A stretch of DNA of 64,000 bases from Proteiniphilum sp. (GTDB lineage Bacteria > Bacteroidota > Bacteroidia > Bacteroidales > Dysgonomonadaceae): contig JADMKJ010000134.1 of the NCBI GenBank assembly GCA_015478855.1, positions 11,729 to 75,728 on the forward strand, written 5' to 3'. Positions 19,464 to 44,075 of this stretch are shown one piece after another (the first letter of the stretch is position 1; the number at the start of each line of letters is the position of its first letter). The translations under genes and the position numbers were made by a program. A model generated the notes under the pieces. The model was not told the origin of the DNA. It searched no databases and saw only the letters and a program-made list of their open reading frames with translations.

Positions 19464-19475
19464 TTAAACGATTAA
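19464..19475. promoter_or_regulatory. Candidate LacI-family operator (TTAAACGATTAA) overlapping the regulator's own promoter
   Basis: Imperfect palindrome TTAA-N-CG-N-TTAA with the central CG typical of LacI operators. The same 12-mer occurs twice upstream of fucI. Confidence 0.5.
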
Positions 19476-19480
19476 CCTTA

Positions 19481-19488
19481 TACTTTTG
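19481..19488 (+). promoter_or_regulatory. Bacteroidota -7 promoter element (TACTTTTG = TAnnTTTG) for the LacI regulator gene
   Basis: Exact match to TAnnTTTG, 20-29 bp upstream of the candidate starts (TTG 19508, GTG 19517). Confidence 0.45.
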
Positions 19489-19507
19489 CGTTAACTAAAG
19501 TTATAAG

Positions 19508-20512
19508 TTGAAGATCGTGAAAAAGATTTCTTTAAAAGTAATCGCTAATGAAGTTGGCGTTTCAGCCGCAACTGTCTCGCTTGTTTTGAACGGAAAAAAC
19601 AAGAACGGCCGGGTGAGCAAAGAGGTATCAAGGAAAATATTGGAAAAGGCTGCAGAATTGAATTATGTGCCAAACAGCCTGGCCAAAGGACTGAAAATGG
19701 GAAACTCAAAATCAATCGGATTGATTGTAGCTGATATTTCAAACGTTTTTTTTGGTACTTTGGCATTACACATTCAGAATTTTGCCGAAAAAGAGGGTTA
19801 TACCGTAATTATCGGGAATACCAATGAAGAGTTGACCGAGATGCACAAAATGATTACCTTCTTTAACGCACGGCAGGTGGATGGTCTGATTATCACCCCT
19901 GCAGAAGGTGGGGAGCTGATTATACAATCACTGGTTGATAATAAAATACCCCTGGTACTGGTTGACAGAAGTTTTCCTGAATTGAATGCCGCCTCTGTGC
20001 TGATAGATAATTATGATATTTGTTATTCTTCCACGAAACAATTAATTGATCAGGGTTGTAAAAACCCGGCATTTATTTCCTATAAACAGGATCAGTTTCA
20101 TACAAATGAAAGAAAAAGAGGCTTTGTGGAAGCACTGAAGGAGCTGGGTCTTTACAATGAAGGAAATATAAAAGAGGTCAGTTACCATAATCTCAGCGAG
20201 GATGTTGATAATGTTATTGCGCAATTGATGAAACAAAGAAATAAAGTAGACGGAATCTTTTTTGCAACCAACTCTATATCAATAGCAGGCATAAGATCAT
20301 TATTTAAACATGGGGTGATGGTTCAAAAAGATATTCAGGTGATGTGTTTTGATGAAAGTGAAGCCATCGTTTTATTTCCGTTTCGGATTCCTTATATAAA
20401 ACAACCGGTTGAAGAGATGGCTAAAACTGCTTTAACTATGCTGATCGATCAGATTGAAAAAAGAGAATCGACTATCAGGACCTCTCTGATCAGGGCTGAA
20501 TTAATAAAGTGA
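19508..20512 (+). CDS. LacI-family transcriptional regulator
   Basis: N-terminal HTH ISLKVIANEVGVSAATVSLVLNGK, then a periplasmic-binding-protein-like sugar sensor domain. 334 aa. The start codon is non-ATG in the track. Confidence 0.9.
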   Translation: MKIVKKISLKVIANEVGVSAATVSLVLNGKNKNGRVSKEVSRKILEKAAELNYVPNSLAKGLKMGNSKSIGLIVADISNVFFGTLALHIQNFAEKEGYTVIIGNTNEELTEMHKMITFFNARQVDGLIITPAEGGELIIQSLVDNKIPLVLVDRSFPELNAASVLIDNYDICYSSTKQLIDQGCKNPAFISYKQDQFHTNERKRGFVEALKELGLYNEGNIKEVSYHNLSEDVDNVIAQLMKQRNKVDGIFFATNSISIAGIRSLFKHGVMVQKDIQVMCFDESEAIVLFPFRIPYIKQPVEEMAKTALTMLIDQIEKRESTIRTSLIRAELIK

Positions 20513-20524
20513 TTTTTTAAGCAG

Positions 20525-20541
20525 TTAGTTAAACGATTAAT
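20525..20541. promoter_or_regulatory. Candidate LacI operator O1 upstream of fucI (TTAGTTAAACGATTAAT)
   Basis: Exact 17-mer repeated at 20562..20578. It contains the TTAAACGATTAA core. Confidence 0.5.
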
Positions 20542-20561
20542 TAACCATTTTTCTACGCTGT

Positions 20562-20578
20562 TTAGTTAAACGATTAAT
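20562..20578. promoter_or_regulatory. Candidate LacI operator O2 upstream of fucI (TTAGTTAAACGATTAAT)
   Basis: Second exact copy, 37 bp from O1. It ends 19 bp before the fucI ATG. Confidence 0.5.
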
Positions 20579-20596
20579 CTTTTAAAATTATTATAT

Positions 20597-22369
20597 ATGA
20601 AGCAAGTTTATCCTAAAATTGGCATTCGTCCCATAATTGATGGGCGACGCGGTGGTATCAGGGAATCTTTGGAAGAGATAACCCTGAATCTGGCAAGAAG
20701 TGCCGCAAAGTTATACAGTGACACGTTGAGATATCCTGATGGAACTCCTGTAGTGTGTGTAATTGCCGACACATGTATTGGAGGTGTGAAAGAGGCTGCC
20801 AGTTGTGCCGATAAATTTGAAAGAGAAGGAGTCGGTCTTTCTCTATCTGTCACCCCCTGCTGGTGCTACGGTTCAGAAACGATCGATATGAACCCTTTGA
20901 TACCAAAAGCGATCTGGGGCTTTAACGGAACCGAACGTCCGGGTGCTGTATATCTGGCTGCTGCTCTTGCGGTCCACAACCAGAAAGGGTTGCCGGCATT
21001 CGGCATTTATGGAAAGGATGTACAGGATTCAGGAGACACTGAAATTCCTGAAGATGTGAAGGAGAAATTGCTTCGATTTGCAAAAGCAGGTCTGGCGGTA
21101 GCCATGATGAGAGGTAAGTCTTATCTGGCCATTGGCTCCGTTTCGATGGGTATCGGAGGGGCAATGGTCAATCCCGATTTCCTCCAGGATTATCTTGGTA
21201 TGAGAACGGAGTATGTGGATTCCACGGAGATACTTCGTCGTATACAGCTCGGCATATATGATAAGGATGAGTATACCAGGGCACTGCAATGGACGAAAGA
21301 GAAATGCGTGAGTCGTGAGGGGAAAGATTACAATCCGGACCACCTGAAACATGATCATATGCAAAAAGAGAAGGACTGGGAATTTGTGGTGAAGATGACC
21401 ATCATCATGCGTGATCTGATGATTGGAAATCCGCGACTTCTCGAGATGGGATATGGTGAAGAGGCGCTGGGACATAATGCCATTGCAGGAGGTTTTCAGG
21501 GACAACGACAGTGGACTGATTTCCTGCCTGACGGTGACTTTTCTGAAGCGATCCTTAATTCATCCTTCGACTGGAACGGGATACGTGAAGCATTTACTTT
21601 TGCCACGGAAAATGACCATCTGAATGGTATCAGTATGTTGTTCAATCACCTGCTGACCAACACCTCACAGATATTTGCCGATGTACGTACCTACTGGAGC
21701 CCCGAAGCAATTGAACGAACCAGTGGCTGGAAACCTGACGGATTACTTGAAAAGGGTGCTATCCACCTGATTAATTCCGGGTCCTGTACCCTCGACGGCA
21801 CAGGCCAGCAATCAGATGCAGAAGGGAATCCGGTGATGAAACCATTCTGGGAGATCACAAATGAAGAGGTGGATAAAATGCTGGAGGCAACCACCTGGCA
21901 TCCTGCATCGCTTGAATATATGCGTGGTGGTGGTTACTCTTCCAAGTTTCTGACAAGGCATGGGATGCCGGTCACCATGTGTCGTATCAACCTGATCAAA
22001 GGCCTGGGACCCGTTTTGCAGATTGCTGAAGGATGGACGGCCACCTTCCCGCAGGATGTGTTTGAGATAATTGATCAGCGTACCGACAAGACATGGCCCT
22101 CCACCTTCTTTGTGCCACGTATCACTGGCAATGGACGATTCACGGATGTTTATTCGGTGATGAACAATTGGGGTGCGAACCACGGAGCAATCAGCTACGG
22201 TCACATCGGAGCCGATTTGATCACACTGGCATCTGCGCTTTCTATTCCGGTGAATATGCATAATGTGGAGGAGGGTAAAATTTTCCGCCCTGCTGTGTGG
22301 GCTGCTTTCGGTGCTGACAATGAAGGTGCCGATTATCGTGCATGTGGTGCTTACGGACCGTTATATTAA
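20597..22369 (+). CDS. fucI: L-fucose isomerase family enzyme (L-fucose/D-arabinose isomerase)
   Basis: 590 aa. The N-terminus [27 protein letters not shown] and the overall length are typical of FucI. Confidence 0.92.
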
Positions 22370-22390
22370 TAATCTATATCATTGTATCAA

Positions 22391-25300
22391 ATGAAGAATA
22401 CATTATTTATCATTTTGCTATTGTTGACTAATTGTCTTTCAGTGATCGCTCAACAGATAGTGGTAACCGGAACTGTAATAGATGAGCAGGACCGTTCACC
22501 TCTCGTAAGTGTAGGAATTCAAGTGAAAGGGAAAAATATTGGCGTTCTCACAGACTTGGATGGAAAGTATGAGATTCAAGTTCAAAAGGGGGATGTCCTT
22601 ATGTTTTCGTACGTTGGTATGAAACCTCAGCAAATAACTGTGCAGGAACAGACAGTAATTGATGTCGTTATGACCTCGGATGGACAGATTGATGAGTTAG
22701 TAGTTATCGGATACGGAACAGCACGCAAAAGTGACTTAACGGGATCAGTTGGAACACTCAATATTGAGGACGTTGCGAAAACCAATCCTGTAAGTATTAA
22801 CCAGGCTTTACAAGGACGTATAGCCGGTGTGAACGTTATGCAGACCGATGGTGCCCCTGGATCATCAATCAGTATTCAAGTACGTGGAGCAAATTCTTTT
22901 GCTTCAAATACTGAACCCTTGTTTGTCATTGATGGAATTCCATTTGAAACAGGAGGTACACCCTCAGGAGGAACAGGTAGACAAGTAAATCCTTTGTCTT
23001 TTATCAATGTTCAGGATATTGAATCATTAGAGGTGCTAAAAGATGCTTCTGCTACTGCTATTTACGGTTCACGTGGTGCCAACGGTGTTGTTTTAGTGAC
23101 TACGAAAAAAGGAAAGAAAGGTGAGGACAAAATTGATGTGGGTGTCAATTTTACAGCATCATATTTAAACAATCGTGTGAAATTTTTGAATGGGCACGAC
23201 TATGCCACCTATGCCAACGAACGTCAACGTAATCACTATACCTACGATGGTGTTGCATATCTCTCACCTGTCTACGCAGGTGCCTGGGGATACGACCAGA
23301 ACAAGGGTTATTATGTATATAATCCCTCACCCCGGGATTTTGCTGATGGTTATATGAATGGAGGTACTAATTGGACTGACGTGATTACCCAACAGGCACT
23401 TTCAAAGGAATACATGCTTAGTTATTCTGGAGCCAGTGACGCAGGAGATCATTATGTGTCGGGGAGTTTTCTTGAACAAAATGGCGTTATTTATGGAACA
23501 GGGTATAGGCGGGCTAATTTGCATATGAAGATTAACCGAAATATTAAAGATTATCTTCGAACAGGCGCTTCTATTACATTCTCTAATTCAAAGACCGATT
23601 TTGCTGTCGCTAACTGGTCAAATGCAGACATATTCAGGGATGCACTTTACTATCCATCCACTGAATTTATCTTCGATCCTGTTACGATGGATGTGAATGA
23701 TGAAGATTTTTACTATGCAACGAATCCTTATGTTGCTGTTCGTGAATTAAATGACAATACCACCGGAAAAAACATCCACCTGAATGCCTATTTGGCAATC
23801 GATTTTTTAAAAGATTTCAACTTTAAACAGACCCTGGGTTATGGATACAATTTTTCCGAACGCCTGGCATATTACAGTCGTAACACCAGAGCCGGGTATG
23901 TAAACAATGGTACCGGTAGCCAATCAGATTACTGGAACTACAATGTTTCGTCTGAATCGCTGTTGACATACAACAAAACGTTTGCGAAAAACCACCGGGT
24001 AAACGCTGTTGGTGCATTTACATTTGAGCAATTCGATTATGGAAATAAAGGGATGTCGGCTTCGGAATTTCCAAACGATTATCTTCAGATGTACAACATG
24101 GGAACTACTCTTGACCCATTGAAGAAAAGTCTTTGGAGTGGAAGAGGACGCTCACGAATACTTTCATGGCTTGGACGTGTTAATTATGTGATGAAAGATA
24201 ATTATTTGTTTACTTTTTCAGCACGTGCTGATGGTTCCAGTAAATTTGCGGTGGGTAATAAATGGGCTGACTTCTACTCAGTTGCTTTTGCCTGGCGTGC
24301 TTCTGAGGAAGAGTTTATCAAAAAGCTCAATCTCTTTAGTACGTTAAAACCAAGAATTAGTTTTGGTCAAACAGGGAACCAGTCGATTAACAATTACCAA
24401 ACTGTTGAACTGTTGATTGCACAGGCATCATCTTTGAATGGAAATATCGTACCGGGTTATGCGGAAGCTGTTTGGAAAGGACCTGTAAATCTTGATCTTA
24501 TGTGGGAAACAACAGCTCAATATAATGTTGGTGCTGATGTAGGTTTTTACGACAATCGCCTCTTGCTTACATTAGACGCTTATTACAAAAAGACCCGTGA
24601 CTTATTACAGGACATCGCATTGCCATATAGTTCCGGTTTTGATGTGATGAAAGATAATTATGGTTACGTTATCAATCGCGGATTAGAACTGAGTGTACAA
24701 GCCAATTTATTGGAGAAAACACCTTTGAAATGGGATGTCAATGCAAATATTTACCTAAATAGAAATGAAATTGGTGGTTTAACGGACGATCAATATGCCC
24801 AGCGATTATTTGTCGGGGTTGATCAGATATACGTACACCGAAATGGAAAACCGATAGGTACAATTATTGGCTATCAATCAGATGGTTTCTACGATAGTGA
24901 AGCCGAAGTTCGTGCCGATCCCGTTCACGCTAAGAAAACCAATCAGGAAATTAAAGCATTGATCGGCGAAGAAAAAATTCGAAACAATGACGATAATAAG
25001 AGTAGTATTTCTGTTACCGACCGGGTAATAATTGGTAACGTGAATCCTGATTTTCAGTTTGGTATCACAAATAATCTTCAGTGGAAGAATTTTTCCTTTA
25101 GTTTTTTCATACAGGGTAACGTGGGAGGTAATATATTGAATGCCAATCTGCTGCAGAACGTAGATATGCTCGGTTGGGGAAATATACCGCAATTTGCATT
25201 TGACAATAGATGGACTGCCGCCAATCCATCTATAGCTCAGTTTCCCAAGCCAAATGAGGGATTTGGCAGGGTTTCTTATTTTTCCGATCGTTTTATTGAA

Positions 25301-25540
25301 GATGCGACATATGTAAGATTGAAGAACATCAATATTGGTTATAACTTTCAGAATCCTGTAAGGCATATTTCAAATATCAATTTATATGTAAACTTGTCAA
25401 ATATATTGACATTCACGAATTACCGATGGTTTGACCCTGATGTAAATTCATTTGGGGGAGATGTAACAAGAAGAGGTGTAGACTTGTCGGCATATCCTAC
25501 AGCAACAACTTTCCAATGCGGATTAAAAGTATCATTCTAA
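22391..25540 (+). CDS. SusC-type TonB-dependent outer-membrane transporter
   Basis: Signal peptide, CarboxypepD_reg domain, DELVVIGYGTARKSDLTGSV (SusC TonB box/plug signature), barrel ending GLKVSF. ATG at 22391; the track begins at an upstream TTG. Confidence 0.95.
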   Translation: MKNTLFIILLLLTNCLSVIAQQIVVTGTVIDEQDRSPLVSVGIQVKGKNIGVLTDLDGKYEIQVQKGDVLMFSYVGMKPQQITVQEQTVIDVVMTSDGQIDELVVIGYGTARKSDLTGSVGTLNIEDVAKTNPVSINQALQGRIAGVNVMQTDGAPGSSISIQVRGANSFASNTEPLFVIDGIPFETGGTPSGGTGRQVNPLSFINVQDIESLEVLKDASATAIYGSRGANGVVLVTTKKGKKGEDKIDVGVNFTASYLNNRVKFLNGHDYATYANERQRNHYTYDGVAYLSPVYAGAWGYDQNKGYYVYNPSPRDFADGYMNGGTNWTDVITQQALSKEYMLSYSGASDAGDHYVSGSFLEQNGVIYGTGYRRANLHMKINRNIKDYLRTGASITFSNSKTDFAVANWSNADIFRDALYYPSTEFIFDPVTMDVNDEDFYYATNPYVAVRELNDNTTGKNIHLNAYLAIDFLKDFNFKQTLGYGYNFSERLAYYSRNTRAGYVNNGTGSQSDYWNYNVSSESLLTYNKTFAKNHRVNAVGAFTFEQFDYGNKGMSASEFPNDYLQMYNMGTTLDPLKKSLWSGRGRSRILSWLGRVNYVMKDNYLFTFSARADGSSKFAVGNKWADFYSVAFAWRASEEEFIKKLNLFSTLKPRISFGQTGNQSINNYQTVELLIAQASSLNGNIVPGYAEAVWKGPVNLDLMWETTAQYNVGADVGFYDNRLLLTLDAYYKKTRDLLQDIALPYSSGFDVMKDNYGYVINRGLELSVQANLLEKTPLKWDVNANIYLNRNEIGGLTDDQYAQRLFVGVDQIYVHRNGKPIGTIIGYQSDGFYDSEAEVRADPVHAKKTNQEIKALIGEEKIRNNDDNKSSISVTDRVIIGNVNPDFQFGITNNLQWKNFSFSFFIQGNVGGNILNANLLQNVDMLGWGNIPQFAFDNRWTAANPSIAQFPKPNEGFGRVSYFSDRFIEDATYVRLKNINIGYNFQNPVRHISNINLYVNLSNILTFTNYRWFDPDVNSFGGDVTRRGVDLSAYPTATTFQCGLKVSF

Positions 25541-25553
25541 AAATCATACCATC

Positions 25554-27275
25554 ATGAGAAAAATAATATATTCATTAGGCATCGTAAGCATGATTTTCTT
25601 TACCTCCTGTTTTGAGGGTCTTTTGGAAGAGAAAGTTTATTCAGATGTAAGTGCCACTATATTCGATGACTCTGAATCATCGGCTAATATGCTTGTTAGT
25701 GGTGTATGGAATACATTGAGTGGGGGACAATTTCACCTCTATAATTCTTATTTTAAAATTGTGGAGTTTGACACTGATGACATGATTGCCGGTGACTGGG
25801 CATTGAAGACATATGGTGCCGGTAACTTTACAGAAGATCCATTTGATATTGACAATTGGTGGAGGGGAAGATACTCTTTGATTTATCGTAGTAACTATGC
25901 AATCGAAAAAATCGAACAAATGAATAATATTGACCCTGAAATCAAGAACAATATGATAGGGCAGATGATGTTCTTGAAAGGATGGGCTTACTTTCAACTG
26001 GTACAAGCTTACGGAGCAATTCCAATTCACAGGGAAAAGGTCTTTACTCCTGAAGAGTATCAGGTTCCACGTTCACCCATAACCGATGTATATTCACATA
26101 TCATTGAATTGCTGGATGAAGCTTCTGCTATGTTGATTACAAAAACCAATCCCAAATATAAAACAGGAAGCATCTCAAAGTATACAGCTAAAACCCTCCT
26201 TGCTTGTGTCTACACGACCATGGGTTCCGGATCACTGCCCCAGGGAACACAAATCAGTGTGATTGGTGGTCCTTCAGAAAGAATCAATAGTATCACGGGT
26301 GAAACAGAAAGAATTGAGTATCCTGTATCTATCACACATCAGAAAGAAAAGGTTGCAGGTTATGACTTTGATCCTGTGCAGTGCTATTCACGGGTGAAAC
26401 AATTATGTGATAGCATCATAGAATCGGGAGAGTTTAGTCTCCATAGTAGTTATTCGGATGTTTGGAAGATTAGCAGCCGCAATGGTCCGGAATTTATTTG
26501 GCAATTACAGGCTAACCAATCTATTGATTATTTACGCAATGCTCTTGGCGGATCAATCTCGGGTTATTATGATCCTAGAAATAATGGTCGTATCTCAGGT
26601 GCTTTATATGGCATTCGGGATCATTGGTACCGCTTATTTGAATCGAACGATCTCAGGGCGCGCGAAGGCATTCTACATCTATATGCCCGTTACGAACAAG
26701 GGGGAGCCGGTACCCCTCAGGAACACGAACCATGGTGGTTTTTCTTCCCTCGTGAAGATAGTCTGCGTCTGATTAGTGAAAACCCAGATAAACGTAACTG
26801 GGATGGCGGCATCACATATAGTCCAGGCATACAGATACTTACAAAGTTTCAAGCAGTTACAGATAATACTCAGGAGGGTTCTGACTACAATTATCCATTT
26901 TTACGCTATCCAATTGTTTACTTAATGCTTGCCGAAGCAGAATGTGAATTGGGTAATCTTCAACGTGCTAAAGAGGTGGTTGATGTGGTACGTGCAAGAT
27001 CTATGGCTTCGCAAATATCTACCGAGACGTATCCGGGATCACAGACTGAGATCCGTTCCTTTATATTGGAAGAACGTCGCAGAGAGCTGGCATTCGAAGG
27101 GATCCGTAAATGGGATTTACTACGCTGGGGAATTTACCTTCAAGTGATGAACGCAGTTGACAAAGACGGGTCAATAATAAAAAGAAGGCAAAGACGCAAT
27201 CTGCTTTTTCCTATTCCAATAGGTGAATTGAATGCGAACAAGGCATTAAATAATGAAAACAATCCTGGATGGTGA
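25554..27275 (+). CDS. SusD/RagB-family glycan-binding lipoprotein
   Basis: Lipobox FFTSC, a TPR-like helical body, and the C-terminal ERRRELAFEGIRKWDLLRWG motif. It lies 13 bp after susC. Confidence 0.9.
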   Translation: MRKIIYSLGIVSMIFFTSCFEGLLEEKVYSDVSATIFDDSESSANMLVSGVWNTLSGGQFHLYNSYFKIVEFDTDDMIAGDWALKTYGAGNFTEDPFDIDNWWRGRYSLIYRSNYAIEKIEQMNNIDPEIKNNMIGQMMFLKGWAYFQLVQAYGAIPIHREKVFTPEEYQVPRSPITDVYSHIIELLDEASAMLITKTNPKYKTGSISKYTAKTLLACVYTTMGSGSLPQGTQISVIGGPSERINSITGETERIEYPVSITHQKEKVAGYDFDPVQCYSRVKQLCDSIIESGEFSLHSSYSDVWKISSRNGPEFIWQLQANQSIDYLRNALGGSISGYYDPRNNGRISGALYGIRDHWYRLFESNDLRAREGILHLYARYEQGGAGTPQEHEPWWFFFPREDSLRLISENPDKRNWDGGITYSPGIQILTKFQAVTDNTQEGSDYNYPFLRYPIVYLMLAEAECELGNLQRAKEVVDVVRARSMASQISTETYPGSQTEIRSFILEERRRELAFEGIRKWDLLRWGIYLQVMNAVDKDGSIIKRRQRRNLLFPIPIGELNANKALNNENNPGW

Positions 27276-27300
27276 TCTTTAATCAACAAATCTCAGAAAA

Positions 27301-28539: not shown

Positions 28540-28556
28540 TATAAAAATAAGCTAAC

Positions 28557-35828: not shown

Positions 35829-35861
35829 ATGATACAATCAAGAGATCTATGATACAATCAA
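35829..35861 (+). repeat. 13-bp direct repeat ATGATACAATCAA x2 (35829-35841, 35849-35861), 20 bp start to start
   Basis: Read directly in the 153-bp spacer that splits the PUL. Confidence 0.8.
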
Positions 35862-35957
35862 TACTTAATTTTTATTTAAAATATCAGGTATTGTATTACA
35901 TTTACTGTTCAAAAATAATCAAAATATTTTTTTAATACTCTTAACGATTACTTTTTT

Positions 35958-37124
35958 ATGCATTTAAAGTCAATTCTTCTTTTAATCGTTTGTTGTGTGA
36001 TAAATACAGCTTCTATCCAATCCCAAACATCCTTTAACGGTCTTGATATGAATATGGGTAACCTCTACCGTTTGTCCAACGCAGAGACACGCTCCATCAG
36101 TCCTGAGAACTTCACCGGGGAGAAAGGTAAAGGGGGTATGGCTACACCCGATCCCAATGCACCACGTAACACAGCCAACGCCACCCATGCATCACGCGAT
36201 CTGGGGCAGGGCTGGAAGGTGAATCCCTATGTCACCATCCGGCCGGGTGAAACGTTCACCATGGCTGAGATTGATGGTCCCGGCGCCATCCAGCATATCT
36301 GGATGACCCCTACCGGCAACTGGCGCTTCTCCATCATCCGCATTTACTGGGATGATGAGACAGAACCCTCTGTGGAGGTCCCAGTGGGTGATTTCTTCGG
36401 CATGGGCTGGAACGAGTATGCCCCTTTGAACTCACAACCGATCACCGTGAACCCGGGAAGTGCTTTCAACAGCTACTGGACGATGCCCTTTCGAAAAAAG
36501 TGCAGGATCACGATGACCAACATCAACGATGAACAGCCGATGAACCTCTACTATCAGATCGATTATACCCTTACCGATGTGCCGGAGGATGCTGCCTATT
36601 TCCATGCGCAGTTTCGCAGAACAAAGGTGAATGAAACATCCGATTATACCATCATCGACAATGTGAAGGGCGAAGGACACTACGTGGGCGTCTACATGGC
36701 ATGGCAGGTGAACAACAACGGTTGGTGGGGCGAAGGAGAGATCAAGTTCTTTATGGATGGCGATAAGCAATTCCCCACTATTATAGGCACCGGCACAGAA
36801 GATTACTTCTGCGGTTCGTATAATTTCGACAGACACGGGAAATATGTTACCTATACCACTCCCTATGCAGGATTGGTGCAGGTTCTTCCTCCTGATCAGA
36901 CCTACAAGTCGGGACAGCGCTTCGGCCTCTACCGCTGGCATGTGATGGACCCGATCCGGTTTAAAAAAGATCTGAAGATTACCATCCAGGATCTGGGATG
37001 GCGGCATGGCGGGCGTTATCTGCCACAGAAGTCGGATATCTCTTCAACCACATTCTGGTATCAGAGTGAACCACACGCAAAATTCCCGGCACTGCCCTCA
37101 TGGGAAGAATTAGAAGTGAATTAA
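35958..37124 (+). CDS. GH172 (DUF2961) family glycoside hydrolase, paralog 2
   Basis: Signal peptide. IDGPGAIQHIWMT, YYQIDY and IIGTGTEDYFCGSY motifs. 388 aa. Confidence 0.85.
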   Translation: MHLKSILLLIVCCVINTASIQSQTSFNGLDMNMGNLYRLSNAETRSISPENFTGEKGKGGMATPDPNAPRNTANATHASRDLGQGWKVNPYVTIRPGETFTMAEIDGPGAIQHIWMTPTGNWRFSIIRIYWDDETEPSVEVPVGDFFGMGWNEYAPLNSQPITVNPGSAFNSYWTMPFRKKCRITMTNINDEQPMNLYYQIDYTLTDVPEDAAYFHAQFRRTKVNETSDYTIIDNVKGEGHYVGVYMAWQVNNNGWWGEGEIKFFMDGDKQFPTIIGTGTEDYFCGSYNFDRHGKYVTYTTPYAGLVQVLPPDQTYKSGQRFGLYRWHVMDPIRFKKDLKITIQDLGWRHGGRYLPQKSDISSTTFWYQSEPHAKFPALPSWEELEVN

Positions 37125-37146
37125 TCACCATAATTAATCACCATAA
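37121..37146 (+). repeat. Tandem 13-mer TTAATCACCATAA x2 spanning the stop codon of GH172 paralog 2
   Basis: Read directly. It is followed by the degenerate partial copy TCAATCATAATG, which contains the next start codon. Confidence 0.8.
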
Positions 37147-37155
37147 TCAATCATA

Positions 37156-39096
37156 ATGAGAAGTAAATTAAATACATTTTTGCTGGCTCTCCTGTTTATG
37201 ACAGGTGTCTTTCAGTTGCACAGTCAAAATAAAACATACCGCTGGAGCGATGAAGTGACGCTGTTGAAGCGAGTGGATCAGCTACCCCGATACAGGCATA
37301 ATCAACTGATTGAGCAGGAGTCGAGCTACGACCGCACCGGCAACAACGATGACGGTTTTTCAGGGAAATATTCATATATCAGAAAAGAGGGAGACAATCT
37401 TGTCCTGGCCGATTTCAAGGGACCCGGTGTCGTGAACAGAATCTGGACCCCCACCCCTACCAACGACACACTGCTTTTCTATTTTGACGGAGAGAAGGAC
37501 CCCCGTCTGAAGATTCGTTTTATGGATCTCTTTTCAGGAGATGTCTACCCTTTTGTGAAACCGGTGTGCGGCAATGAGATAGGAGGATATTACAGTTATA
37601 TCCCCATCCCATTCAAAGAATCGCTGAAAATAGTTTTTCAGGGAGAAAAGATCATGTTCCACCAGATTCAGTACCGTGCACTATCCGGTATGGATGTGGA
37701 GTCATGGACAGGACAGTTCACCCCTGCCGACAGGGCACTGCTTGCAGAGGTGAGCAACTTGTGGGGTGACATCTCTCCCACGGTGAACAACTATACCTCG
37801 GGTCTCTCCGGCGGGCTCCTTACGGAGGAAAAGACGTTTACCATTGAGCCGGACCAGGAGGTGCTCTTCTTCGACAAGCAGTCGGGTGGCCGGATCGTCG
37901 GCTTTGAGATTGATGGCGGCACTGCCTTTGAAGGTCTCTACAAGGATCTTATCCTCTCGGCCCGGTGGGATAATGAGTCGGTGGAGGCGATCTATGCGCC
38001 GGTAGCCGATTTCTTTGGTTACGCTTATGGAAAGCCGGCAATGAGGAGCATCCTGATGGGCAGATACAACACCACCAACTATGCTTATCTTCCAATGCCG
38101 TTTGATCATTCTGCCAGGATGAAACTGGTCTACAGGAAAAGAGATGGTATAACCCAGAGTCCTCTTCCCGTGAGTGTGAAAGTATATTATAACAACAACA
38201 AACGCGATGTGAAGGAAGAGGGTAAGCTCTATACTGTTTGGAGAAGAGAGCAGCCTGAGACAGCCAGTTTCTACGAGTTTATGAAGACCCGGGGGAAAGG
38301 CCACTATGTGGGGACAATCCATAGTGCACAGGGACTGCGACCGGGTATGACGCTCTTCTTTGAGGGGGATGACAGTACCTATGTCGATGGGAAGATGCGT
38401 ATGCACGGCACCGGATCGGAAGATTATTACAACGGTGGCTGGTACGCGCTGCTCGATCGCTGGGACCGGGGAATAAGCATGCCCATCCATGGATCTCTCG
38501 ATTATTCACTTCCGATGAACCGTACAGGTGCATACCGTTTTTTCCTCTCGGATAAGCTGAGCTTTGAGCGGGAGATATATCACGCGATGGAGCATGGTCC
38601 CGAACGGAATGAATTTCCGGTGGACTACACCTCTGTCGCTTTCTATTACGGTGCACAGCCACTCAAAGAGCGAATGGAGCCGACAGCTGCGCTGAGAGAG
38701 GTCTATCTGCCGGAGAAACATGTCTATTTCCCCCAGCTGATGGAGATCACGCTTGAAAAGGGTGTGCAGGTTATCTTTGACAGAGGGCTGTCCATCTCAT
38801 CTTTTGGCCAGGGGGCTGTAAGAGTGATGCTGACCGATGTTCCTGAGGGAAGATACAGGGTGTTGCTCAATTATCATGAGGGTCCCAAGGGAGCGGATTT
38901 CCAGATATGGCAGCGACAGTATCAGCTTTCAGACTGGCATTCAACCAAAGCGGTTGCTGACCGATATCGTGAGAACGTGCATGTAGGTGATATTCATCTC
39001 ACACCACAGACGAACTCAATCACGGTGCATGTGCGGGACAACGGTGAAGCCAACCTGTTCGAGCTAACTTTGATAACACTGGAACGAATAGATTGA
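37156..39096 (+). CDS. GH172 (DUF2961) family glycoside hydrolase, paralog 3, with a C-terminal extension of about 150 aa
   Basis: FKGPGVVNRIWTPT, FHQIQY and MHGTGSEDYYNGGWY motifs. The extra C-terminal domain is beta-rich (residues about 500-646). Confidence 0.8.
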   Translation: MRSKLNTFLLALLFMTGVFQLHSQNKTYRWSDEVTLLKRVDQLPRYRHNQLIEQESSYDRTGNNDDGFSGKYSYIRKEGDNLVLADFKGPGVVNRIWTPTPTNDTLLFYFDGEKDPRLKIRFMDLFSGDVYPFVKPVCGNEIGGYYSYIPIPFKESLKIVFQGEKIMFHQIQYRALSGMDVESWTGQFTPADRALLAEVSNLWGDISPTVNNYTSGLSGGLLTEEKTFTIEPDQEVLFFDKQSGGRIVGFEIDGGTAFEGLYKDLILSARWDNESVEAIYAPVADFFGYAYGKPAMRSILMGRYNTTNYAYLPMPFDHSARMKLVYRKRDGITQSPLPVSVKVYYNNNKRDVKEEGKLYTVWRREQPETASFYEFMKTRGKGHYVGTIHSAQGLRPGMTLFFEGDDSTYVDGKMRMHGTGSEDYYNGGWYALLDRWDRGISMPIHGSLDYSLPMNRTGAYRFFLSDKLSFEREIYHAMEHGPERNEFPVDYTSVAFYYGAQPLKERMEPTAALREVYLPEKHVYFPQLMEITLEKGVQVIFDRGLSISSFGQGAVRVMLTDVPEGRYRVLLNYHEGPKGADFQIWQRQYQLSDWHSTKAVADRYRENVHVGDIHLTPQTNSITVHVRDNGEANLFELTLITLERID

Positions 39097-39104
39097 TCAC
39101 GAAG

Positions 39105-41192
39105 ATGAAAAGACGTTTTTATACCTCCCTGATCGGATCATTTGCAGCACTCTTTTGCATGGTTGCGCAGGTATCTGATCTGACCGGAGATGAGGTGTCA
39201 GTGATAAAAACATCTTTTCCGGGTGATCATACCCGGCAGACAATTCAATATGATCAGCTGGGAGTGCAAAAGGGGCAGAGCCATGTAACTGTCATCAATG
39301 AGCAATGCCTCCATGTGAAGATCAGCTTCATGCTCGGGCAACCACTGCAGCAGGACGACTGGCAGCTGTCAGTAACCCCCGGCTTTGTACCTTCCTTTCA
39401 CTGGTCGCCGCACCTGACTCCTACCGGGAGGCATATCGTCGATCAGCATGTCTTTCGTTCACCTGCCCTGATCATGTCTGACGGTAAGCAGATGATAGCG
39501 CTTGTCCCCGATCTGGATATCATGCAAAAAGGAACAGCCGTAAGATGGTATCTCGATCTGGATGCGCCCAATAACCGCCTTATACTGGGCATGAGCAACA
39601 GTAGTGTGGCTGAGCATATCCTGTTTCAGAGGGAGCCGGGGGCGACCTACCCTGAGGGTGAAGTGGAGATTGGTTTTTATCTTTTGCATGCTGCTGATGC
39701 AGCTGCTGTGGTTAATCCATTCAGAAAACCGCTCGATTTTATCTGGAGCCGCTGGGGACACCCACTCTACCATTCAGGACACCCGGTTGCAGGAAAGCTG
39801 GAGAACTATGTGGAACATACCTACAACTGGGCGTTCAATAGCTGGGGCGATGCTGTATGGCAGGAGTTTGAACTGAATGGGAACATTGTGGGTGCACCTG
39901 TTTTTATTGTCAACACAACGCAGAGTCCCAATTATCCGGGAGAGGTGAATGAACGTGAGTTCCGTTCTGTGTGGAACCAGGCCTGGTTCAGTTCGTTGCG
40001 CTCTGCCGGTGGTTTGTACCGGTACGCGAGACGAACGGGTAATAAAGCGTTGATGGAGAAAGCATTGCTCACCAAAGAGCTGGCACTCTCCTTTCCGCAG
40101 CGGGATGGATTTTTCTATGGGCTGATCGGCACGGAGATGGAGGAGGTTGAATCGGAAGGAAGGAAATACAACAGAAGCAAAGGATGGGACACCCACTACT
40201 GGGGCAATTCAAACAGGAACCCCTATACCTGGAATCCGCGGGAAGCACCTTTCCATATCCTGGATATGAGCTGGACGGCACTGCTGATGCTGCGCTGGTA
40301 TGATGAGCTGGAGAGAGATGACCGGCTGCTCACTTATGCAGAAGATTATGCGAAATCGTTACTGAAAATACAGTATTCAAACGGATTTTTCCCGGGGTGG
40401 CTGCATCTGGAGACACTGGAGCCGATGCAACATCTGAATGAATCGCCTGAGACAGCCATGTCGGTGACATTTCTTTTGAAACTGGCAGCACTGACAGGAA
40501 ATCACGATTATAAAAAGGCGGCACTGAAAGCAATGGATGCTGTGATCCGGAACGTGATCCCCACGGGTAGATGGGAGGATTTTGAAACCTACTGGTCCTG
40601 CTCCCGCTACGGATCAGACAGCCTGGTAGGTGAAAAAGTCTTAAGGAACAATATGCATAAACAGAATAACATCTCAATGTTCTGGACAGCTGAAGCGTTG
40701 TTGGAATGCTATCTGACAACGAAGGAGAAACACTATCTTGTGATGGGACAAAGGACGCTCGACGAGTTATTGATGACACAGGCAGCATGGCAGCCTCCCT
40801 ATATGTATGTGAACGTGCTGGGAGGTTTCGGTGTGATGAATGCGGATGGTGAATGGAACGATTCGAGGCAGAGCCTCTTTGCCGGGCTGATACTTCAGTA
40901 CGGCAAGCTCCTCAGCAAGACTGAATATAGTGAAAGAGGCTACGCTGCTCTGAAAGCATCTTTTGTGATGATGTACGCTCCTGAGAATCCTCAGACAAAG
41001 ATGCAATGGGAGAAAGTATACCCGTTCTTCGGTGCGGAAGATTATGGTTTTATGATGGAAAATTACGGTCATGGCGGGCGCACCAGTCCCGGAGGAGAAG
41101 GAATGGGAGAATTTGCCATCTACGATTGGGGTAACGGCGCTGCTGCCGAAGCTTATAATCGTATACTGGATAAATTCGGGACAATGGAATAA
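39105..41192 (+). CDS. 695-aa secreted protein of unknown family (beta-rich N-domain plus helix-rich C-domain, candidate (alpha/alpha)6 glycoside hydrolase)
   Basis: The ORF starts at 39093 (TTG) and overlaps the upstream stop. The ATG at 39105 gives MKRRFYTSLIGSFAALFCMVAQV. I recognise no family motif. The C-terminal 450 aa are rich in W/Y and helix-forming repeats. Confidence 0.6.
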   Translation: MKRRFYTSLIGSFAALFCMVAQVSDLTGDEVSVIKTSFPGDHTRQTIQYDQLGVQKGQSHVTVINEQCLHVKISFMLGQPLQQDDWQLSVTPGFVPSFHWSPHLTPTGRHIVDQHVFRSPALIMSDGKQMIALVPDLDIMQKGTAVRWYLDLDAPNNRLILGMSNSSVAEHILFQREPGATYPEGEVEIGFYLLHAADAAAVVNPFRKPLDFIWSRWGHPLYHSGHPVAGKLENYVEHTYNWAFNSWGDAVWQEFELNGNIVGAPVFIVNTTQSPNYPGEVNEREFRSVWNQAWFSSLRSAGGLYRYARRTGNKALMEKALLTKELALSFPQRDGFFYGLIGTEMEEVESEGRKYNRSKGWDTHYWGNSNRNPYTWNPREAPFHILDMSWTALLMLRWYDELERDDRLLTYAEDYAKSLLKIQYSNGFFPGWLHLETLEPMQHLNESPETAMSVTFLLKLAALTGNHDYKKAALKAMDAVIRNVIPTGRWEDFETYWSCSRYGSDSLVGEKVLRNNMHKQNNISMFWTAEALLECYLTTKEKHYLVMGQRTLDELLMTQAAWQPPYMYVNVLGGFGVMNADGEWNDSRQSLFAGLILQYGKLLSKTEYSERGYAALKASFVMMYAPENPQTKMQWEKVYPFFGAEDYGFMMENYGHGGRTSPGGEGMGEFAIYDWGNGAAAEAYNRILDKFGTME

Positions 41193-41211
41193 ATAATTTT
41201 AAAGATAAACT

Positions 41212-42462
41212 ATGAAACTGAAAACATTGAACAAGAGTCTGTTGGCTGCAGGTATCGGGGCCGCTATGCTGCTCTCCTGCACAGGCAACAATAAAACATC
41301 GGACACTATGAAGAAAGAGTATGAAGCAGGGACATTCGGGTATGATCTGAACTATCTCTCAGAGAAGGATAGTCTTATCGTCCTGAAATCAGATAACGGC
41401 AAAGCACAGGTGATTGTGTCAGCGAAATACCAGGCGAAGGTATTCACCTCTACCGCTACCGGTGAAGAGGGTAAAAGTCATGGATTTGTGAATTATAAGT
41501 TCTTTGATGCCGGAATTGTCGATGAGCATATGAACGGCTTTGGAGGAGAAAACCGCTTTTGGTTAGGACCCGAAGGAGGACAATACTCCATCTTCTTTGA
41601 ACCTGGGAAGGAGCAGATCTTCGATCACTGGCACACCCCTAACGCAATCGATATAGAGGAGTGGGATGTGAACAGCGCTACTGATGCTGAGGCAACCTTC
41701 ACGAAGGAGATGGAGCTGAAGAATTATCAGGGAAGCAGCCTGAAGATTGCTGTGGAAAGAACGATCGCACTGCTCCCCGACAGTGAAATAGCTCGCACTC
41801 TCGGGATTGACTTACACGAAGGAGTGAGCGCGGTTGCCTATTCAACCGAAAACAGGATCACCAACCGCAACGATTATGAGTGGACAAAAGAGACCGGAAC
41901 AGTCTGCATATGGATGCTTGACATGTTCAATCCTTCCGATTCGGCAGTGACGGTGATACCCTATCATACTGGAGATGAAAGTAGGCTGGGCAATGTGGTC
42001 ACATCCGATTATTTCGGTGAAATCCCACCTGAAAGATTGATTGATGACAGCGGCACTATTTTTTTTAAAACAGATGGGAAAAAAAGAGGTAAACTGGGGA
42101 TGAATGCAAAACGTACAAAATTGATTGCCGGTAACTATGATCCCATCTCACAACGGCTGACTGTCGTCACTTTTGGTGCTGATCCGGAGGCTGTCTATCT
42201 CAACCAGGAGTGGAACCCCGAAAGAGAGCCGCTCACAGGTGATGCGCTTAACGCCTATAACGACGGACCGCTGGATGACGGAAGCATCATGGGGCCTTTC
42301 CTGGAACTGGAGAGCAGCTCACCTGCCGCTTTTCTGAAACCGGATGAGTCATTATCGCACATGCATAACGTCTATCATTTCGTGGGCAGCGAGGCAGCCC
42401 TCTCCCCCATCGCGGAACAGCTGCTGGGCGTGAGTCTGGAAAAAGTAAAGACAATTTTTTAA
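41212..42462 (+). CDS. 416-aa lipoprotein of unknown function (possibly mutarotase-like beta-sandwich)
   Basis: Lipobox MLLSCTG. NGFGGENRFWLGPEGGQYSIFF and FLELESSSPAAFLKPDES resemble aldose-epimerase-like supersandwich proteins. This is a weak call. Confidence 0.55.
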   Translation: MKLKTLNKSLLAAGIGAAMLLSCTGNNKTSDTMKKEYEAGTFGYDLNYLSEKDSLIVLKSDNGKAQVIVSAKYQAKVFTSTATGEEGKSHGFVNYKFFDAGIVDEHMNGFGGENRFWLGPEGGQYSIFFEPGKEQIFDHWHTPNAIDIEEWDVNSATDAEATFTKEMELKNYQGSSLKIAVERTIALLPDSEIARTLGIDLHEGVSAVAYSTENRITNRNDYEWTKETGTVCIWMLDMFNPSDSAVTVIPYHTGDESRLGNVVTSDYFGEIPPERLIDDSGTIFFKTDGKKRGKLGMNAKRTKLIAGNYDPISQRLTVVTFGADPEAVYLNQEWNPEREPLTGDALNAYNDGPLDDGSIMGPFLELESSSPAAFLKPDESLSHMHNVYHFVGSEAALSPIAEQLLGVSLEKVKTIF

Positions 42463-42605
42463 TAAGCAATAAGCAATCAGTGATCAGCATTCAGCTTTGT
42501 AGGTGAAACGTGTGTAAGGTAACGGCCCGGGATAAAAATTTCAGATAGTCCGGACTTAAGGCTGAGAGCTAGGAATTGATAACTTTAAACTGACAACTTA
42601 TCAAA

Positions 42606-44075
42606 ATGAATACAACCTCAGAAAAACATCGATTAGTTCCTGCCGGGATTATTTTCCCCTTTATTCTCCTAACATCCCTCTTTTTCATCTGGGCGGTACC
42701 CAACAACATGACCGATACGATGCTGGCGGCATTCAAACGCATCATGAGCCTCTCTGATACCCAGACAGCATGGATCCAGGTGGTCTGCTATCTGCTGGGA
42801 TATGGCTTTTTTGCACTGCCGGGGGCGATTTTTATCAAGAAACATACCTACAAATCGGGTGTGCTGCTGGGACTGGCTTTCTGTATCACGGGTGGATTCC
42901 TCTTCTATCCCGCCATGCTGGCCAATGACATCGGCTCCTTCCTCAGCTTCGCGATGTACCTGCTGGCTATCTTCGTCCTTTTCGCGGGATTGTCGGTGCT
43001 GGAGACCTCTGCCAACTCCTATGTGTATGCTTTGGGAGATCAGCATACTGCAACAAGACGACTCAACTTCTCACAGTCGTTCAACCCTTTTGGTGCCCTC
43101 ACCGGCGTGCTGGTGAGCCAGGTATTCGTACTGTCGCAACTCAATACATTGAGTGCAGCTGAGAGAGGGGCATTGCAACAGGAGGAACTGACTGCCATAC
43201 AGAACCTTGAGCTCAATGCGGTTACCGGTGCATACCTGGTACTGGGAGCGGTGATGCTGGTGCTTTTCCTGATGATTCTTTTCACCAGGATACCCAAGGC
43301 TCAGGATGATGACAGAAGCCTCAACCTGAAGGCGACGCTGGTGCGGCTGAAAAGAAACAAAAACTATGTCTGGGGGGTGGTGGCGCAGTTCTTCTATGTA
43401 GGTGCCCAGATCGCCGTATGGTCGTTCATCATTCGCTACGTGATGCAACAGCTTAATTTCGATGCGGTGATCGCCGGACTGGGTGCAAACCCCTCACAGG
43501 AGTCAATCATCGCGGCATTGCGGGATGTGGAGCCTATCGCGGGTGGTTTCTACGGCCTCACCGAGTGGCTGGGTGTTGACGCGCTGTTGCCCCGTACCGC
43601 CGAACAGGCGGGTGCGACTTATTATATCATGTCGCTTATCCTTTTCGTGGTGGGACGGTTTGTCTGTACCTGGCTGATGAAGTATATACGTCCGGTGAAC
43701 CTGCTCTCCTTTCTCTCGGTGCTGGCGATTCTCCTGTCTATTATCGTGGTCACAGGATCGGGGTTTGTGGGTGTCTATGCACTGATGGGAATCTCGGGCT
43801 GCATGTCGCTGATGTTCCCCACCATCTATGGAATAGGACTGAGAGGCCTGGGTGAAGATACCAAGATTGCCGGTTCCGGCATGGTAATGGCCATTGCCGG
43901 GGCGGCACTGCTGACGCAGCTGCAGGGGATTCTATCAGATCAGTCAGGCAGCATCCGGTTTGCCTACCTGGTACCTGCTGCCGCGTTCGCTGTCATTGCT
44001 TACTATAGCCTTACCGTTGCCCGTAACAAGCGACTGCAGGATGCTATCAGTGATCATATCACTAAAACAGAATAA
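42606..44075 (+). CDS. MFS sugar:H+ symporter of the FucP (L-fucose permease) family
   Basis: 12 TM segments. The N-terminal LFFIWAVPNNMTDTMLAAFKRIMSLSDTQTAWIQ matches the FucP/glucose-galactose transporter signature region. 489 aa. Confidence 0.85.
   Translation: MNTTSEKHRLVPAGIIFPFILLTSLFFIWAVPNNMTDTMLAAFKRIMSLSDTQTAWIQVVCYLLGYGFFALPGAIFIKKHTYKSGVLLGLAFCITGGFLFYPAMLANDIGSFLSFAMYLLAIFVLFAGLSVLETSANSYVYALGDQHTATRRLNFSQSFNPFGALTGVLVSQVFVLSQLNTLSAAERGALQQEELTAIQNLELNAVTGAYLVLGAVMLVLFLMILFTRIPKAQDDDRSLNLKATLVRLKRNKNYVWGVVAQFFYVGAQIAVWSFIIRYVMQQLNFDAVIAGLGANPSQESIIAALRDVEPIAGGFYGLTEWLGVDALLPRTAEQAGATYYIMSLILFVVGRFVCTWLMKYIRPVNLLSFLSVLAILLSIIVVTGSGFVGVYALMGISGCMSLMFPTIYGIGLRGLGEDTKIAGSGMVMAIAGAALLTQLQGILSDQSGSIRFAYLVPAAAFAVIAYYSLTVARNKRLQDAISDHITKTE

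Follow-up and report, generated by a model that had tools for sequence, protein, structure and literature searches.

A LacI-regulated Proteiniphilum gene cluster with three GH172 paralogs as a probable D-arabinose-harvesting polysaccharide utilization locus

We analyzed a 64-kb stretch of DNA from Proteiniphilum sp. (64,000 nucleotides; GenBank assembly GCA_015478855.1, contig JADMKJ010000134.1, positions 11,729 to 75,728), hereafter called the window, which carries a gene cluster that appears to be a polysaccharide utilization locus (PUL) directed at D-arabinofuranosyl glycans. An open reading frame (ORF) listing, combined with Pfam and NCBIfam scans of the ORFs, placed 15 genes at 19508–44075, all on the + strand. 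The cluster begins with a LacI-family transcriptional regulator of 334 aa (19508–20512; LacI helix-turn-helix and Peripla_BP_1/3/4 domains in Pfam) and a FucI-type L-fucose/D-arabinose isomerase of 590 aa (20597–22369). These are followed by a SusC-like TonB-dependent transporter (22382–25540), assigned by Pfam and sharing 93% identity with the protein of a related metagenome-assembled genome (MAG), locus L007, and by three lipoproteins, namely a SusD-like protein (25554–27275; Pfam, lipoprotein Cys19), a surface glycan-binding protein with SGBP_B_XBD and TIG-like domains (27301–28539), in which Cys24 precedes an acidic stretch, and a protein with a Pfam Lipocalin_4 domain (28557–29441). The remaining genes encode a propeller lipoprotein (ORF7), the first of three GH172 proteins (GH172_1), a propeller/β-helix fusion (ORF9), a GH26/metallophosphoesterase fusion (GH26-MPE), GH172_2, GH172_3, a secreted 695-aa protein (Unk695), a DUF6786 lipoprotein and a FucP-type major facilitator superfamily (MFS) sugar:H+ symporter (42606–44075). 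Every gene named in an earlier reading of the DNA without database searches (the sequence-only reading) was reproduced in the same order and orientation. Most gaps, which had been given as 10–40 bp, measured 8–32 bp, the three exceptions being the lacI–fucI gap (84 bp) and the gaps that precede GH172_2 (153 bp) and fucP (143 bp). The start that had been proposed for the block, 19464, did not hold, as no ORF starts there and the frame contains stop codons; the position is that of the first copy of an operator-like 12-mer. By Pfam, the cluster is bordered by housekeeping genes, nadA and ychF on its upstream side and, beyond fucP, a radical-SAM gene and polA.

The window contains just three exact copies of this 12-mer, TTAAACGATTAA, one preceding lacI (19464–19475) and two in the lacI–fucI gap (20529–20540 and 20566–20577). 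A search with a 14-mer allowing up to two mismatches gave six matches, as compared with 0.52 expected. The repeat follows the pattern TTAA-A-CG-A-TTAA, a pseudo-palindrome centered on CG, and pseudo-palindromes of this kind are typical of LacI-family operators. In 21 related loci, some of which carry GH183, lacI or fucI is likewise preceded by the 12-mer (related loci with the repeat include L050 at 8092–8138, L062 at 8053–8151 and L044 at 6965–6976), and because it is conserved at equivalent positions in these loci, TTAAACGATTAA is likely the LacI operator. The 153-bp and 143-bp internal gaps contained neither an operator copy, with a poor half-match at 35944 only, nor a terminator-like hairpin on the + strand; such a hairpin was detected 3' of fucP (44195–44218, + strand). 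This arrangement is consistent with transcription of fucI through fucP as one unit under LacI control. The regulator itself matched NCBIfam equivalogs only below threshold (RbsR and the fructose repressor), and the orthologues that stand at its position in Proteiniphilum acetatigenes and in Proteiniphilum sp. X52 share 73–74% identity with it.

The three GH172 (DUF2961) paralogs carry most of the argument on the substrate. Against a PF11175 gathering cut-off of 27 bits, GH172_1 (30434–31621, +) scored 270, GH172_2 (35958–37124, +) 321 and GH172_3 (37156–39096, +; 646 aa) 177 bits, the last over two matched stretches, so that the assignment made by the sequence-only reading passed the profile test in all three cases. 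Newer Pfam releases divide the family into GH172_1st, GH172_dom and GH172_2nd. The paralogs had been described as strongly diverged, and their mutual identity is indeed 31–35%. As to the motifs that they were said to share, G.G.(I/V).(H/R)IW is present in all three, but GTG(T/S)EDY(F/Y) in two only, GH172_1 reading GTGTEDFF. Both catalytic glutamates are retained throughout, as E250/E271 in GH172_1, E259/E281 in GH172_2 and E403/E422 in GH172_3. The published nucleophile/acid-base pairs of the Dysgonomonas gadei enzymes are E277/E256 in Dg79, E264/E242 in Dg67 and E406/E387 in Dg71 (preprint 10.64898/2026.08.13.744632), and the spacings in our proteins, 21, 22 and 19 residues, equal those of Dg79, Dg67 and Dg71, respectively. 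In the D. gadei locus (L084), the Dg79 ORF has E256 and E277 at exactly the published positions, and these aligned to E250/E271 of GH172_1, to E259/E281 of GH172_2 and to E403/E422 of GH172_3.

Sequence comparison with proteins of known structure placed GH172_1 with Dg79 and BACUNI_00161, with 581 bits to BACUNI_00161 (4KQ7), 574 bits to Dg79 (8AH3; DgGH172c, 62% identity) and 175 bits to the fructofuranosidase αFFase1 (7V1V). GH172_2 belongs to the ExoMA1/DgGH172a clade, with 394 bits to the Microbacterium exo-α-D-arabinofuranosidase ExoMA1 (8IC8), which groups with DgGH172a (PMC10509167), as compared with 154 bits to αFFase1. For GH172_3 the scores were weaker, 90 and 70 bits to arabinofuranosidases versus 56 to αFFase1, and its greater closeness to arabinofuranosidases than to fructofuranosidases is therefore less secure. 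This 74-kDa protein matches GH172_1st, GH172_dom and GH172_2nd and has an additional jelly-roll inserted, along with a domain at its C terminus that newer Pfam releases name DUF8441, and the ~73-kDa Dg71/DgGH172b has a duplicated-jelly-roll architecture (PMC10115798; preprint 10.64898/2026.08.13.744632). Since glutamate spacing, scores and architecture agree, the window appears to contain one representative of each D. gadei GH172 type. Dg79 prefers α-1,5 linkages and Dg67 α-1,5 plus α-1,3 linkages, branched substrates included, and none of the D. gadei GH172 enzymes is active on difructose dianhydride I (DFA I) (preprint 10.64898/2026.08.13.744632). GH172_1 is predicted to be a periplasmic exo-α-1,5-D-arabinofuranosidase and GH172_2 a predicted exo-α-D-arabinofuranosidase.

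The presence of FucI among these genes has a close precedent in PUL42 of D. gadei. When D. gadei grew on enriched D-arabinan, no carbohydrate-active protein was more abundant than a predicted fucose isomerase, whose gene lies in PUL42 together with those for three GH172 enzymes and two GH183 endo-arabinanases (PMC10115798). We assembled its layout from the proteomics table, a Pfam scan of L084 and Shimokawa et al. (PMC10509167) as 02467 (GH172a), 02468 (putative GH116), 02469 (an uncharacterized 416-aa protein), 02471 (GH172b), fucI (placed at 02472 by UniProt accession order), 02473/02474 and 02476/02477 (SusC/SusD), 02479 (GH172c), 02480 and 02481 (GH183) and 02482 (ribulokinase). Our genome comparison covered the 02473–02483 side (L084), and 02467–02472 were compared through published descriptions, lengths in the proteomics table and synteny of relatives; none of the 120 homologues listed was one of these D. 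gadei proteins. The window and PUL42 share a SusC/D-based organization with FucI as part of the locus, the three GH172 types (hexamer-type Dg79, dodecamer-clade Dg67 and duplicated-jelly-roll Dg71) and the combination of secreted hydrolases with cytoplasmic D-arabinose isomerization. PUL42 also has its 416-aa protein where related loci have DUF6786. The comparison with published D-arabinan PULs that the sequence-only reading had called for therefore agrees in GH172 types and FucI, but not in gene order, in the number of SusC/D pairs (one in the window, two in PUL42) or in the GH183 and GH116 genes. PUL42 has two GH183 endo-D-arabinanases, the GH116 (02468) and an FGGY ribulokinase (02482) that the window lacks, whereas the window has two GH32/43-like propellers, a β-helix, the GH26-metallophosphoesterase fusion, LacI and FucP, which PUL42 lacks. 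Since the PUL42 FucI was the top protein on D-arabinan, the association of FucI and GH172 with D-arabinose has direct experimental backing, and a system of this kind is already known from the published D-arabinan locus (Al-Jourani et al. 2023, PMC10115798). The earlier proposal that FucI, a FucP-like permease and three GH172 enzymes together point to D-arabinose is supported by both the sequence comparison and this precedent. Taken together, these results suggest, with a probability that we put at roughly 0.7, that the cluster is a LacI-regulated PUL by which Proteiniphilum harvests D-arabinose from glycans bearing α-D-arabinofuranosyl residues.

Several findings weigh against this reading. 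All non-nested ORFs of at least 118 aa were scanned, those outside the scan being 1206–1451, 56748–57077, 63027–63557 and 63490–63969 (81–176 aa) and an ORF cut by the window start. Within this scope there was no PF13810 match for GH183, and tblastn with both D. gadei GH183 proteins gave none in the window. Likewise, neither a Pfam domain nor a tblastn match was found in the window for GH116, whose subfamily-4 gene counts among the signature genes of the PUL42 type, and Pfam and tblastn detected no FGGY D-ribulokinase in the 64 kb. Because GH183, GH116 and the kinase are absent, a complete mycobacterial-type arabinan pathway is not demonstrated in the window, and the exact glycan may differ from mycobacterial-type D-arabinan. 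FucI (1056 bits against an NCBIfam equivalog cut-off of 775) and FucP (TIGR00885, 397 bits against 280) both exceed the cut-offs for L-fucose equivalogs, and sequence alone cannot separate L-fucose from D-arabinose use for either protein. GH172_3 has only distant relatives among solved structures, and Dg71, its D. gadei counterpart, shows weak α-1,3 activity and only trace activity on defined D-arabinosides (preprint 10.64898/2026.08.13.744632). The orthology of GH172_2, GH172_3 and DUF6786 to D. gadei proteins is one of clade, architecture, length and synteny only. In addition, the GH26 domain is closest to β-mannanases, and to our knowledge D-arabinan has no need of a β-mannanase-like GH26.

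From gene content, families, catalytic residues, orthology, neighborhoods, predicted folds and the operator repeat we infer a route for D-arabinose harvest, in which all activities, details of localization, the function of DUF6786, the inducing compound and the natural substrate glycan are to be read conditionally. Signal peptides and lipoboxes are consistent with the compartments proposed; the three GH172 enzymes carry signal peptides, and FucI has none. At the cell surface, SusC/SusD, the two lipoproteins and possibly ORF7 would bind, trim and import the glycan. In the periplasm, the three GH172 enzymes of Dg79, Dg67/ExoMA1 and Dg71 types, with their different linkage preferences, would release D-arabinose, while ORF9, the GH26-phosphoesterase fusion and the (α/α)6 protein Unk695 might remove other linkages or decorations. 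The DUF6786 lipoprotein would equilibrate the freed α-furanose, FucP would import D-arabinose, and cytoplasmic FucI would convert it to D-ribulose for phosphorylation by a kinase encoded outside the window. The LacI repressor would govern both its own gene and the fucI-led operon through the three TTAAACGATTAA operators.

The genes between fucI and GH172_2 are those for SusC/D, the glycan-binding protein, the lipocalin, ORF7, GH172_1, ORF9 and GH26-MPE. ORF7 (29453–30415, +; 320 aa, lipoprotein Cys22) passed the gathering scores of both GH32N (43 bits) and GH43 (36 bits), over ~135 residues only. Its best PDB matches were 5MUI/5MT2, deposited as "Beta-galactosidase", which we take to be the GH137 β-L-arabinofuranosidase propeller of Bacteroides BT0996, followed by GH43 endo-arabinanases; an NCBIfam match to a β-D-glucuronidase/β-L-arabinofuranosidase model is in line with that assumption. 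In the ORF7 family, for which 713 members were detected, D54, E115, R177-D178-P179 and E236 are invariant, a pattern that matches the acidic triad known from clans GH-J and GH-F. ORF7 may thus represent an unclassified five-bladed-propeller family of GH32/GH43 type, not assignable to a single CAZy family, and is a candidate furanosidase. Pfam and hhalign resolved ORF9 (31654–33741, +) into an N-terminal ORF7 paralogue (99.5% probability, E 4e-22 against the ORF7 family) and a C-terminal right-handed β-helix of the chondroitinase B/Pel9A/GH136 kind. The possibility that either propeller is a diverged GH183 was rejected, with hhalign probabilities of 0.8% for ORF7 and 0.2% for ORF9. Distant ORF7 relatives (45–50% identity; Planctomycetota, a JGI metagenome contig and Actinomycetota) showed no linkage to GH172, and hence the Bacteroidales ORF7 clade alone is informative.

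In GH26-MPE (33762–35804, +; PF02156, 150 bits), the GH26 catalytic domain gave 296 bits to 6Q78, deposited as "GH26C", ahead of the β-mannanases. Its catalytic motifs are intact, with the acid/base in HEFDG (E200) and the nucleophile in LTEVG (E307), and the fused calcineurin-like metallophosphoesterase retains its GD, GNHD and GH motifs. A variant locus in another Bacteroidales MAG (L019) carries a GH5-GH26 fusion at 13811–16153 and a SASA-esterase-metallophosphoesterase fusion at 17853–19814, so that GH26 and phosphoesterase domains recur there in other combinations. A literature search on DUF6786, on 6Q78/GH26C and on GH32-type β-D-arabinofuranosidases found nothing. D-Fructose has the D-arabino configuration, and β-D-arabinofuranose (β-D-Araf) is β-D-fructofuranose minus the C1 hydroxymethyl group. 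Because GH172 enzymes act on both α-D-fructofuranosides and α-D-arabinofuranosides, a GH32-like propeller could by analogy act on β-D-Araf and stand in for GH116. For ORF7 and the N-terminal propeller of ORF9, β-D-arabinofuranosidase activity can at most be called chemically reasonable on this analogy.

To place the cluster among its relatives, we compared the best 80 of 516 GH172_1 relatives with 10-kb flanks on each side, counting neighbors by tblastn with all window proteins and with D. gadei and Bacteroides muris-type reference proteins. FucI was the most conserved neighbor of GH172_1-clade genes (41 of the 80 loci), followed by LacI (36), GH172_2-type (27), GH172_3-type (24) and DUF6786 genes (24), GH183 and GH116 (22 each), Unk695 and FucP (14 each) and an FGGY kinase (13). 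P. acetatigenes and Proteiniphilum sp. X52 have the same site (Yphos-NadA-YchF-LacI-FucI) followed by GH172, SusC/D and GH183, with GH116 in P. acetatigenes only. A groundwater relative (L044) with equal flanks carries a Sus-less operon of LacI, FucI, GH172, FucP, GH172, GH172, Unk695 and DUF6786. As these related loci differ in the depolymerizing module, it looks exchangeable around a conserved core that handles the monosaccharide.

The right-hand border of that module can be located in the window. The stretch comprising fucI and the genes from SusC to GH26-MPE shares 84% nucleotide identity with the MAG locus L007, as compared with only 69–70% for the genes to its right, and L007 has no GH172_2 gene. 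Third-position GC content rises from 0.34–0.37 (SusC to GH26) to 0.53–0.63 (GH172_2 to polA), with the jump at about 35900–36070. Since composition and similarity agree, a right-hand breakpoint is supported there, probably resulting from recombination or module exchange. Base composition cannot be taken to prove that the Sus module was acquired horizontally, as the low-GC stretch also spans the syntenic nadA and ychF genes.

These comparisons bear on a narrower possibility, in which D-arabinose is still the product but is taken from a D-Araf glycan other than mycobacterial arabinogalactan or lipoarabinomannan (LAM), such as a cell-wall or capsular polymer containing phosphodiesters and mannose, with the swapped module supplying the backbone-specific chemistry. 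This would refine the proposal of D-arabinose harvest and does not contradict it, and we consider it a serious contender, if somewhat short of an even chance. GH183 and GH116 are absent here, while the two congeners have GH183 at the same site and one of them also GH116. A triad of GH26, ORF7 and GH172_1 genes was found in six loci, including Bacteroides rodentium, Bacteroides stercorirosoris and uncultured Bacteroidales, always among GH172_2-, GH172_3- or Unk695-type genes; two of these loci also have an FGGY kinase. ORF7 co-occurred with GH26 in all six, and overlapped with GH116 in 0 of 22 and with GH183 in 0 of 22 loci within 10 kb. The exclusivity is suggestive only: the hypergeometric probability of zero overlap between 6 and 22 of 80 loci is ~0.13 (calculated by hand), the loci are phylogenetically related, and as 10 kb per side was covered, GH183 or GH116 may sit elsewhere in those genomes. 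The intact GH26 and phosphoesterase motifs also speak for a glycan of this kind, as do the additional genes of the Bacteroides triad loci (GH38, ADP-ribosylglycohydrolase-family, PHP and FGE-sulfatase-domain genes) and the occurrence of the metallophosphoesterase as a separate gene in one of them (L014). On the other side, we know of no D-Araf glycan with β-mannan or phosphodiester features that could be named.

As an observation in its own right, L011 at 13302–21005, and L010, L014 and L015 at equivalent positions, encode ADP-ribosylglycohydrolase-family, PHP-domain, GH38 α-mannosidase and FGE-sulfatase-domain proteins, a combination that hints at a phosphorylated, furanose-containing bacterial glycan.

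The other explanations depart from D-arabinose and fare far worse. A locus for L-fucose or fucosylated glycans, with the GH172 enzymes acting on an L-fucose-configured furanoside or being accessory, appears improbable, although FucI and FucP score as L-fucose equivalogs. The ring stereochemistry of β-L-fucofuranose and β-L-galactofuranose is that of α-D-Araf, and it is by such stereochemical equivalence that FucI accepts both L-fucose and D-arabinose. We found no FucK, FucA, FucU, FGGY kinase, GH29 or GH95 among the scanned window ORFs (non-nested and of at least 118 aa, with the exceptions named above) by Pfam and tblastn, which bears out the absence of fucK, fucA, fucU and GH29 claimed from the sequence-only reading. 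The closest characterized GH172 enzymes hydrolyze D-arabinan, and the related clusters carry GH183 and GH116, both characterized D-arabinan enzyme families. Marine planctomycete fucoidan PULs do list a GH172 and a GH116 (PMC11685898).

Still less credible is a fructan, caramel or difructose-dianhydride locus, in which the GH172 proteins would be α-D-fructofuranosidases and the GH32-like propellers β-fructofuranosidases. The GH172 family does include αFFase1, the DFA I synthase/hydrolase of Bifidobacterium dentium, which shares the retaining double-jelly-roll catalytic apparatus; ORF7 and the ORF9 N-terminal domain match GH32N and retain the RDP motif, GH32-type propellers being common to the window and Bacteroides fructan PULs; and the sub-threshold match of LacI to the fructose repressor family points the same way. 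A Bacteroides uniformis fructan PUL combines four GH32 genes with one GH172 (PMC9905522). However, αFFase1 is cytoplasmic and matched at 154–175 bits only, with GH172_1 and GH172_2 scoring three to four times higher to arabinofuranosidases, and the orthologous D. gadei types leave DFA I uncut. Moreover, the window has no fructose-handling genes, no fructokinase and no bona fide full-length GH32, and FucI, which has no role in fructose catabolism, is yet the most conserved neighbor. The least probable alternative is a β-mannan PUL built on GH26 with the GH172/FucI genes as an unrelated neighboring operon, for in spite of the affinity of GH26 to β-mannanases and its intact catalytic residues, the locus has this single GH26 and no GH130, GH2, GH5, GH36 or mannose-handling genes, its genes lie 8–32 bp apart without an internal terminator, and GH26 is sandwiched with GH172 genes in every triad locus.

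Two further proteins of the cluster lie outside well-described families. The sequence-only reading had counted at least five products without a confident family, which was a fair estimate, but folds can now be assigned to two of them. Unk695 (39105–41192, +) gave no Pfam, NCBIfam or PDB sequence match, even at permissive thresholds. Its AlphaFold2 model, built from 56 sequences, had a predicted template-modeling score (pTM) of 0.83 and a mean predicted local distance difference test score (pLDDT) of 75.5, and comprises an N-terminal β-sandwich and an (α/α)6 barrel. Foldseek retrieved polysaccharide lyase 5NO8 (BACCELL_00875), GH116, GH52, GH63, GH76 and GH88-type structures (E 1e-7 to 1e-4), with TM-scores normalized to the query of only 0.18–0.39, so that the protein lacks a close relative. 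A disguised GH116 was considered and rejected: the two-domain architecture is shared, but the TM-scores were 0.26–0.39 only, and since Unk695 co-occurs with genuine GH116 genes, it is not a simple GH116 replacement. Some homologues show weak GH88 matches, and at least nine of those listed, of 1121–1174 aa, carry a DUF4185/GH183 domain. This fusion to GH183 ties Unk695 functionally to the breakdown of D-arabinan or LAM, and the protein is a candidate for a new glycoside hydrolase family. One such fusion lies in a cluster of MFS, FGGY, GH172, SusC, SusD, GH183-Unk695, GH116, GH97, GH125 and GH172 genes with 99% identity to a B. muris locus. The 1174-aa fusions encoded at 10001–13525 of L087 (P0154) and 2–3296 of L064 belong to this B. 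muris-type PUL, which looks like a LAM/arabinomannan locus.

The DUF6786 lipoprotein (41212–42462, +; PF20583, 530 bits) matched no other Pfam family at E values up to 10, PF01263 included, and no PDB sequence, and has no acidic export signal behind its lipid-attachment cysteine. A protein of identical sequence is on deposit from a Proteiniphilum sp. MAG, in keeping with the source of the window. Its all-β AlphaFold2 model (pTM 0.82, pLDDT 79) retrieved 3Q1N, 3K25, YphB (3NRE) and GalM (4BZE) as the four top structures (E 3.5e-12 to 3.4e-10; TM-score 0.55–0.65 normalized to the target), all stand-alone galactose-mutarotase-like proteins. In 15 of 24 loci the gene lies no more than 150 bp from fucI or fucP. 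The Tannerella and Parabacteroides loci have it in the order GH172a-GH116-DUF6786-...-FucI-SusC, at a place that matches that of the abundant 416-aa protein 02469 of D. gadei. From fold and neighborhood, we propose that DUF6786 may be a periplasmic D-arabinose mutarotase that feeds FucP, as a functional analogue of FucU.

The proposals for the individual uncharacterized proteins are tentative even when taken together. That at least one of them is correct, among a propeller β-D-arabinofuranosidase, a GH26-phosphoesterase and β-helix opening a D-Araf phosphoglycan, Unk695 as a new glycoside hydrolase family and DUF6786 as a periplasmic D-arabinose mutarotase, is an outcome that we would sooner doubt than expect. 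If true, a phosphoglycan opened by the GH26-phosphoesterase and β-helix would be one not yet linked to Bacteroidota, and DUF6786 would be the first periplasmic D-arabinose mutarotase.

In Escherichia coli, the fuc regulon serves the catabolism of both L-fucose and D-arabinose via FucP, FucI, FucK, FucA and FucU. The window shares with it a FucP-type symporter and a FucI-type isomerase accepting both sugars, but lacks FucK, FucA, FucU and FucR and has a LacI-type regulator; the mutarotase-fold lipoprotein DUF6786 may be a periplasmic substitute for FucU. The Microbacterium arabinogalactanolyticum cluster, whose ExoMA1 is closest to GH172_2, has the same pathway logic, with exo-enzymes freeing D-arabinose for an isomerase and a kinase (PMC10509167). 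It differs in being actinobacterial, in its ABC importer and cytoplasmic exo-enzymes, and in having GH183 endo-arabinanases and the GH116 exo-β-D-arabinofuranosidase ExoMA2, both of which are absent from the window (PMC10509167).

Two other regions of the window, both on the − strand, were observed alongside the cluster. A small carbohydrate cluster at 50714–56733 encodes a metallophosphoesterase (MetallophosN/C), a 1120-aa GH2 β-galactosidase and a DeoC/LacD-family aldolase. At 8365–13118, a 662-aa protein with a weak β-helix match adjoins a 917-aa TonB-dependent outer-membrane receptor, for which no SusD partner was listed.

Polymers of D-arabinofuranose characterize the cell walls of mycobacteria and related bacteria. 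The enzymes that cut them, identified only in 2021–2023, are sought after for analytical use and for what they may reveal about cell-wall turnover. Given that PUL42 is already described, the value of the Proteiniphilum locus lies in the exchange of the GH183/GH116 module for an uncharacterized one, the GH183-fused (α/α)6 family, the mutarotase-fold DUF6786 and the conserved LacI operator. The core of FucI, FucP, GH172 and DUF6786 is widespread in Bacteroidales of anaerobic digesters, sediments, termite guts and animal guts. Within this pathway or a sister pathway stand three uncharacterized families, the GH183-fused (α/α)6 protein, the mutarotase-fold DUF6786 and the GH32-like propellers, which are concrete candidates for new glycoside hydrolase families and point to a missing monosaccharide-handling step in D-arabinose catabolism.

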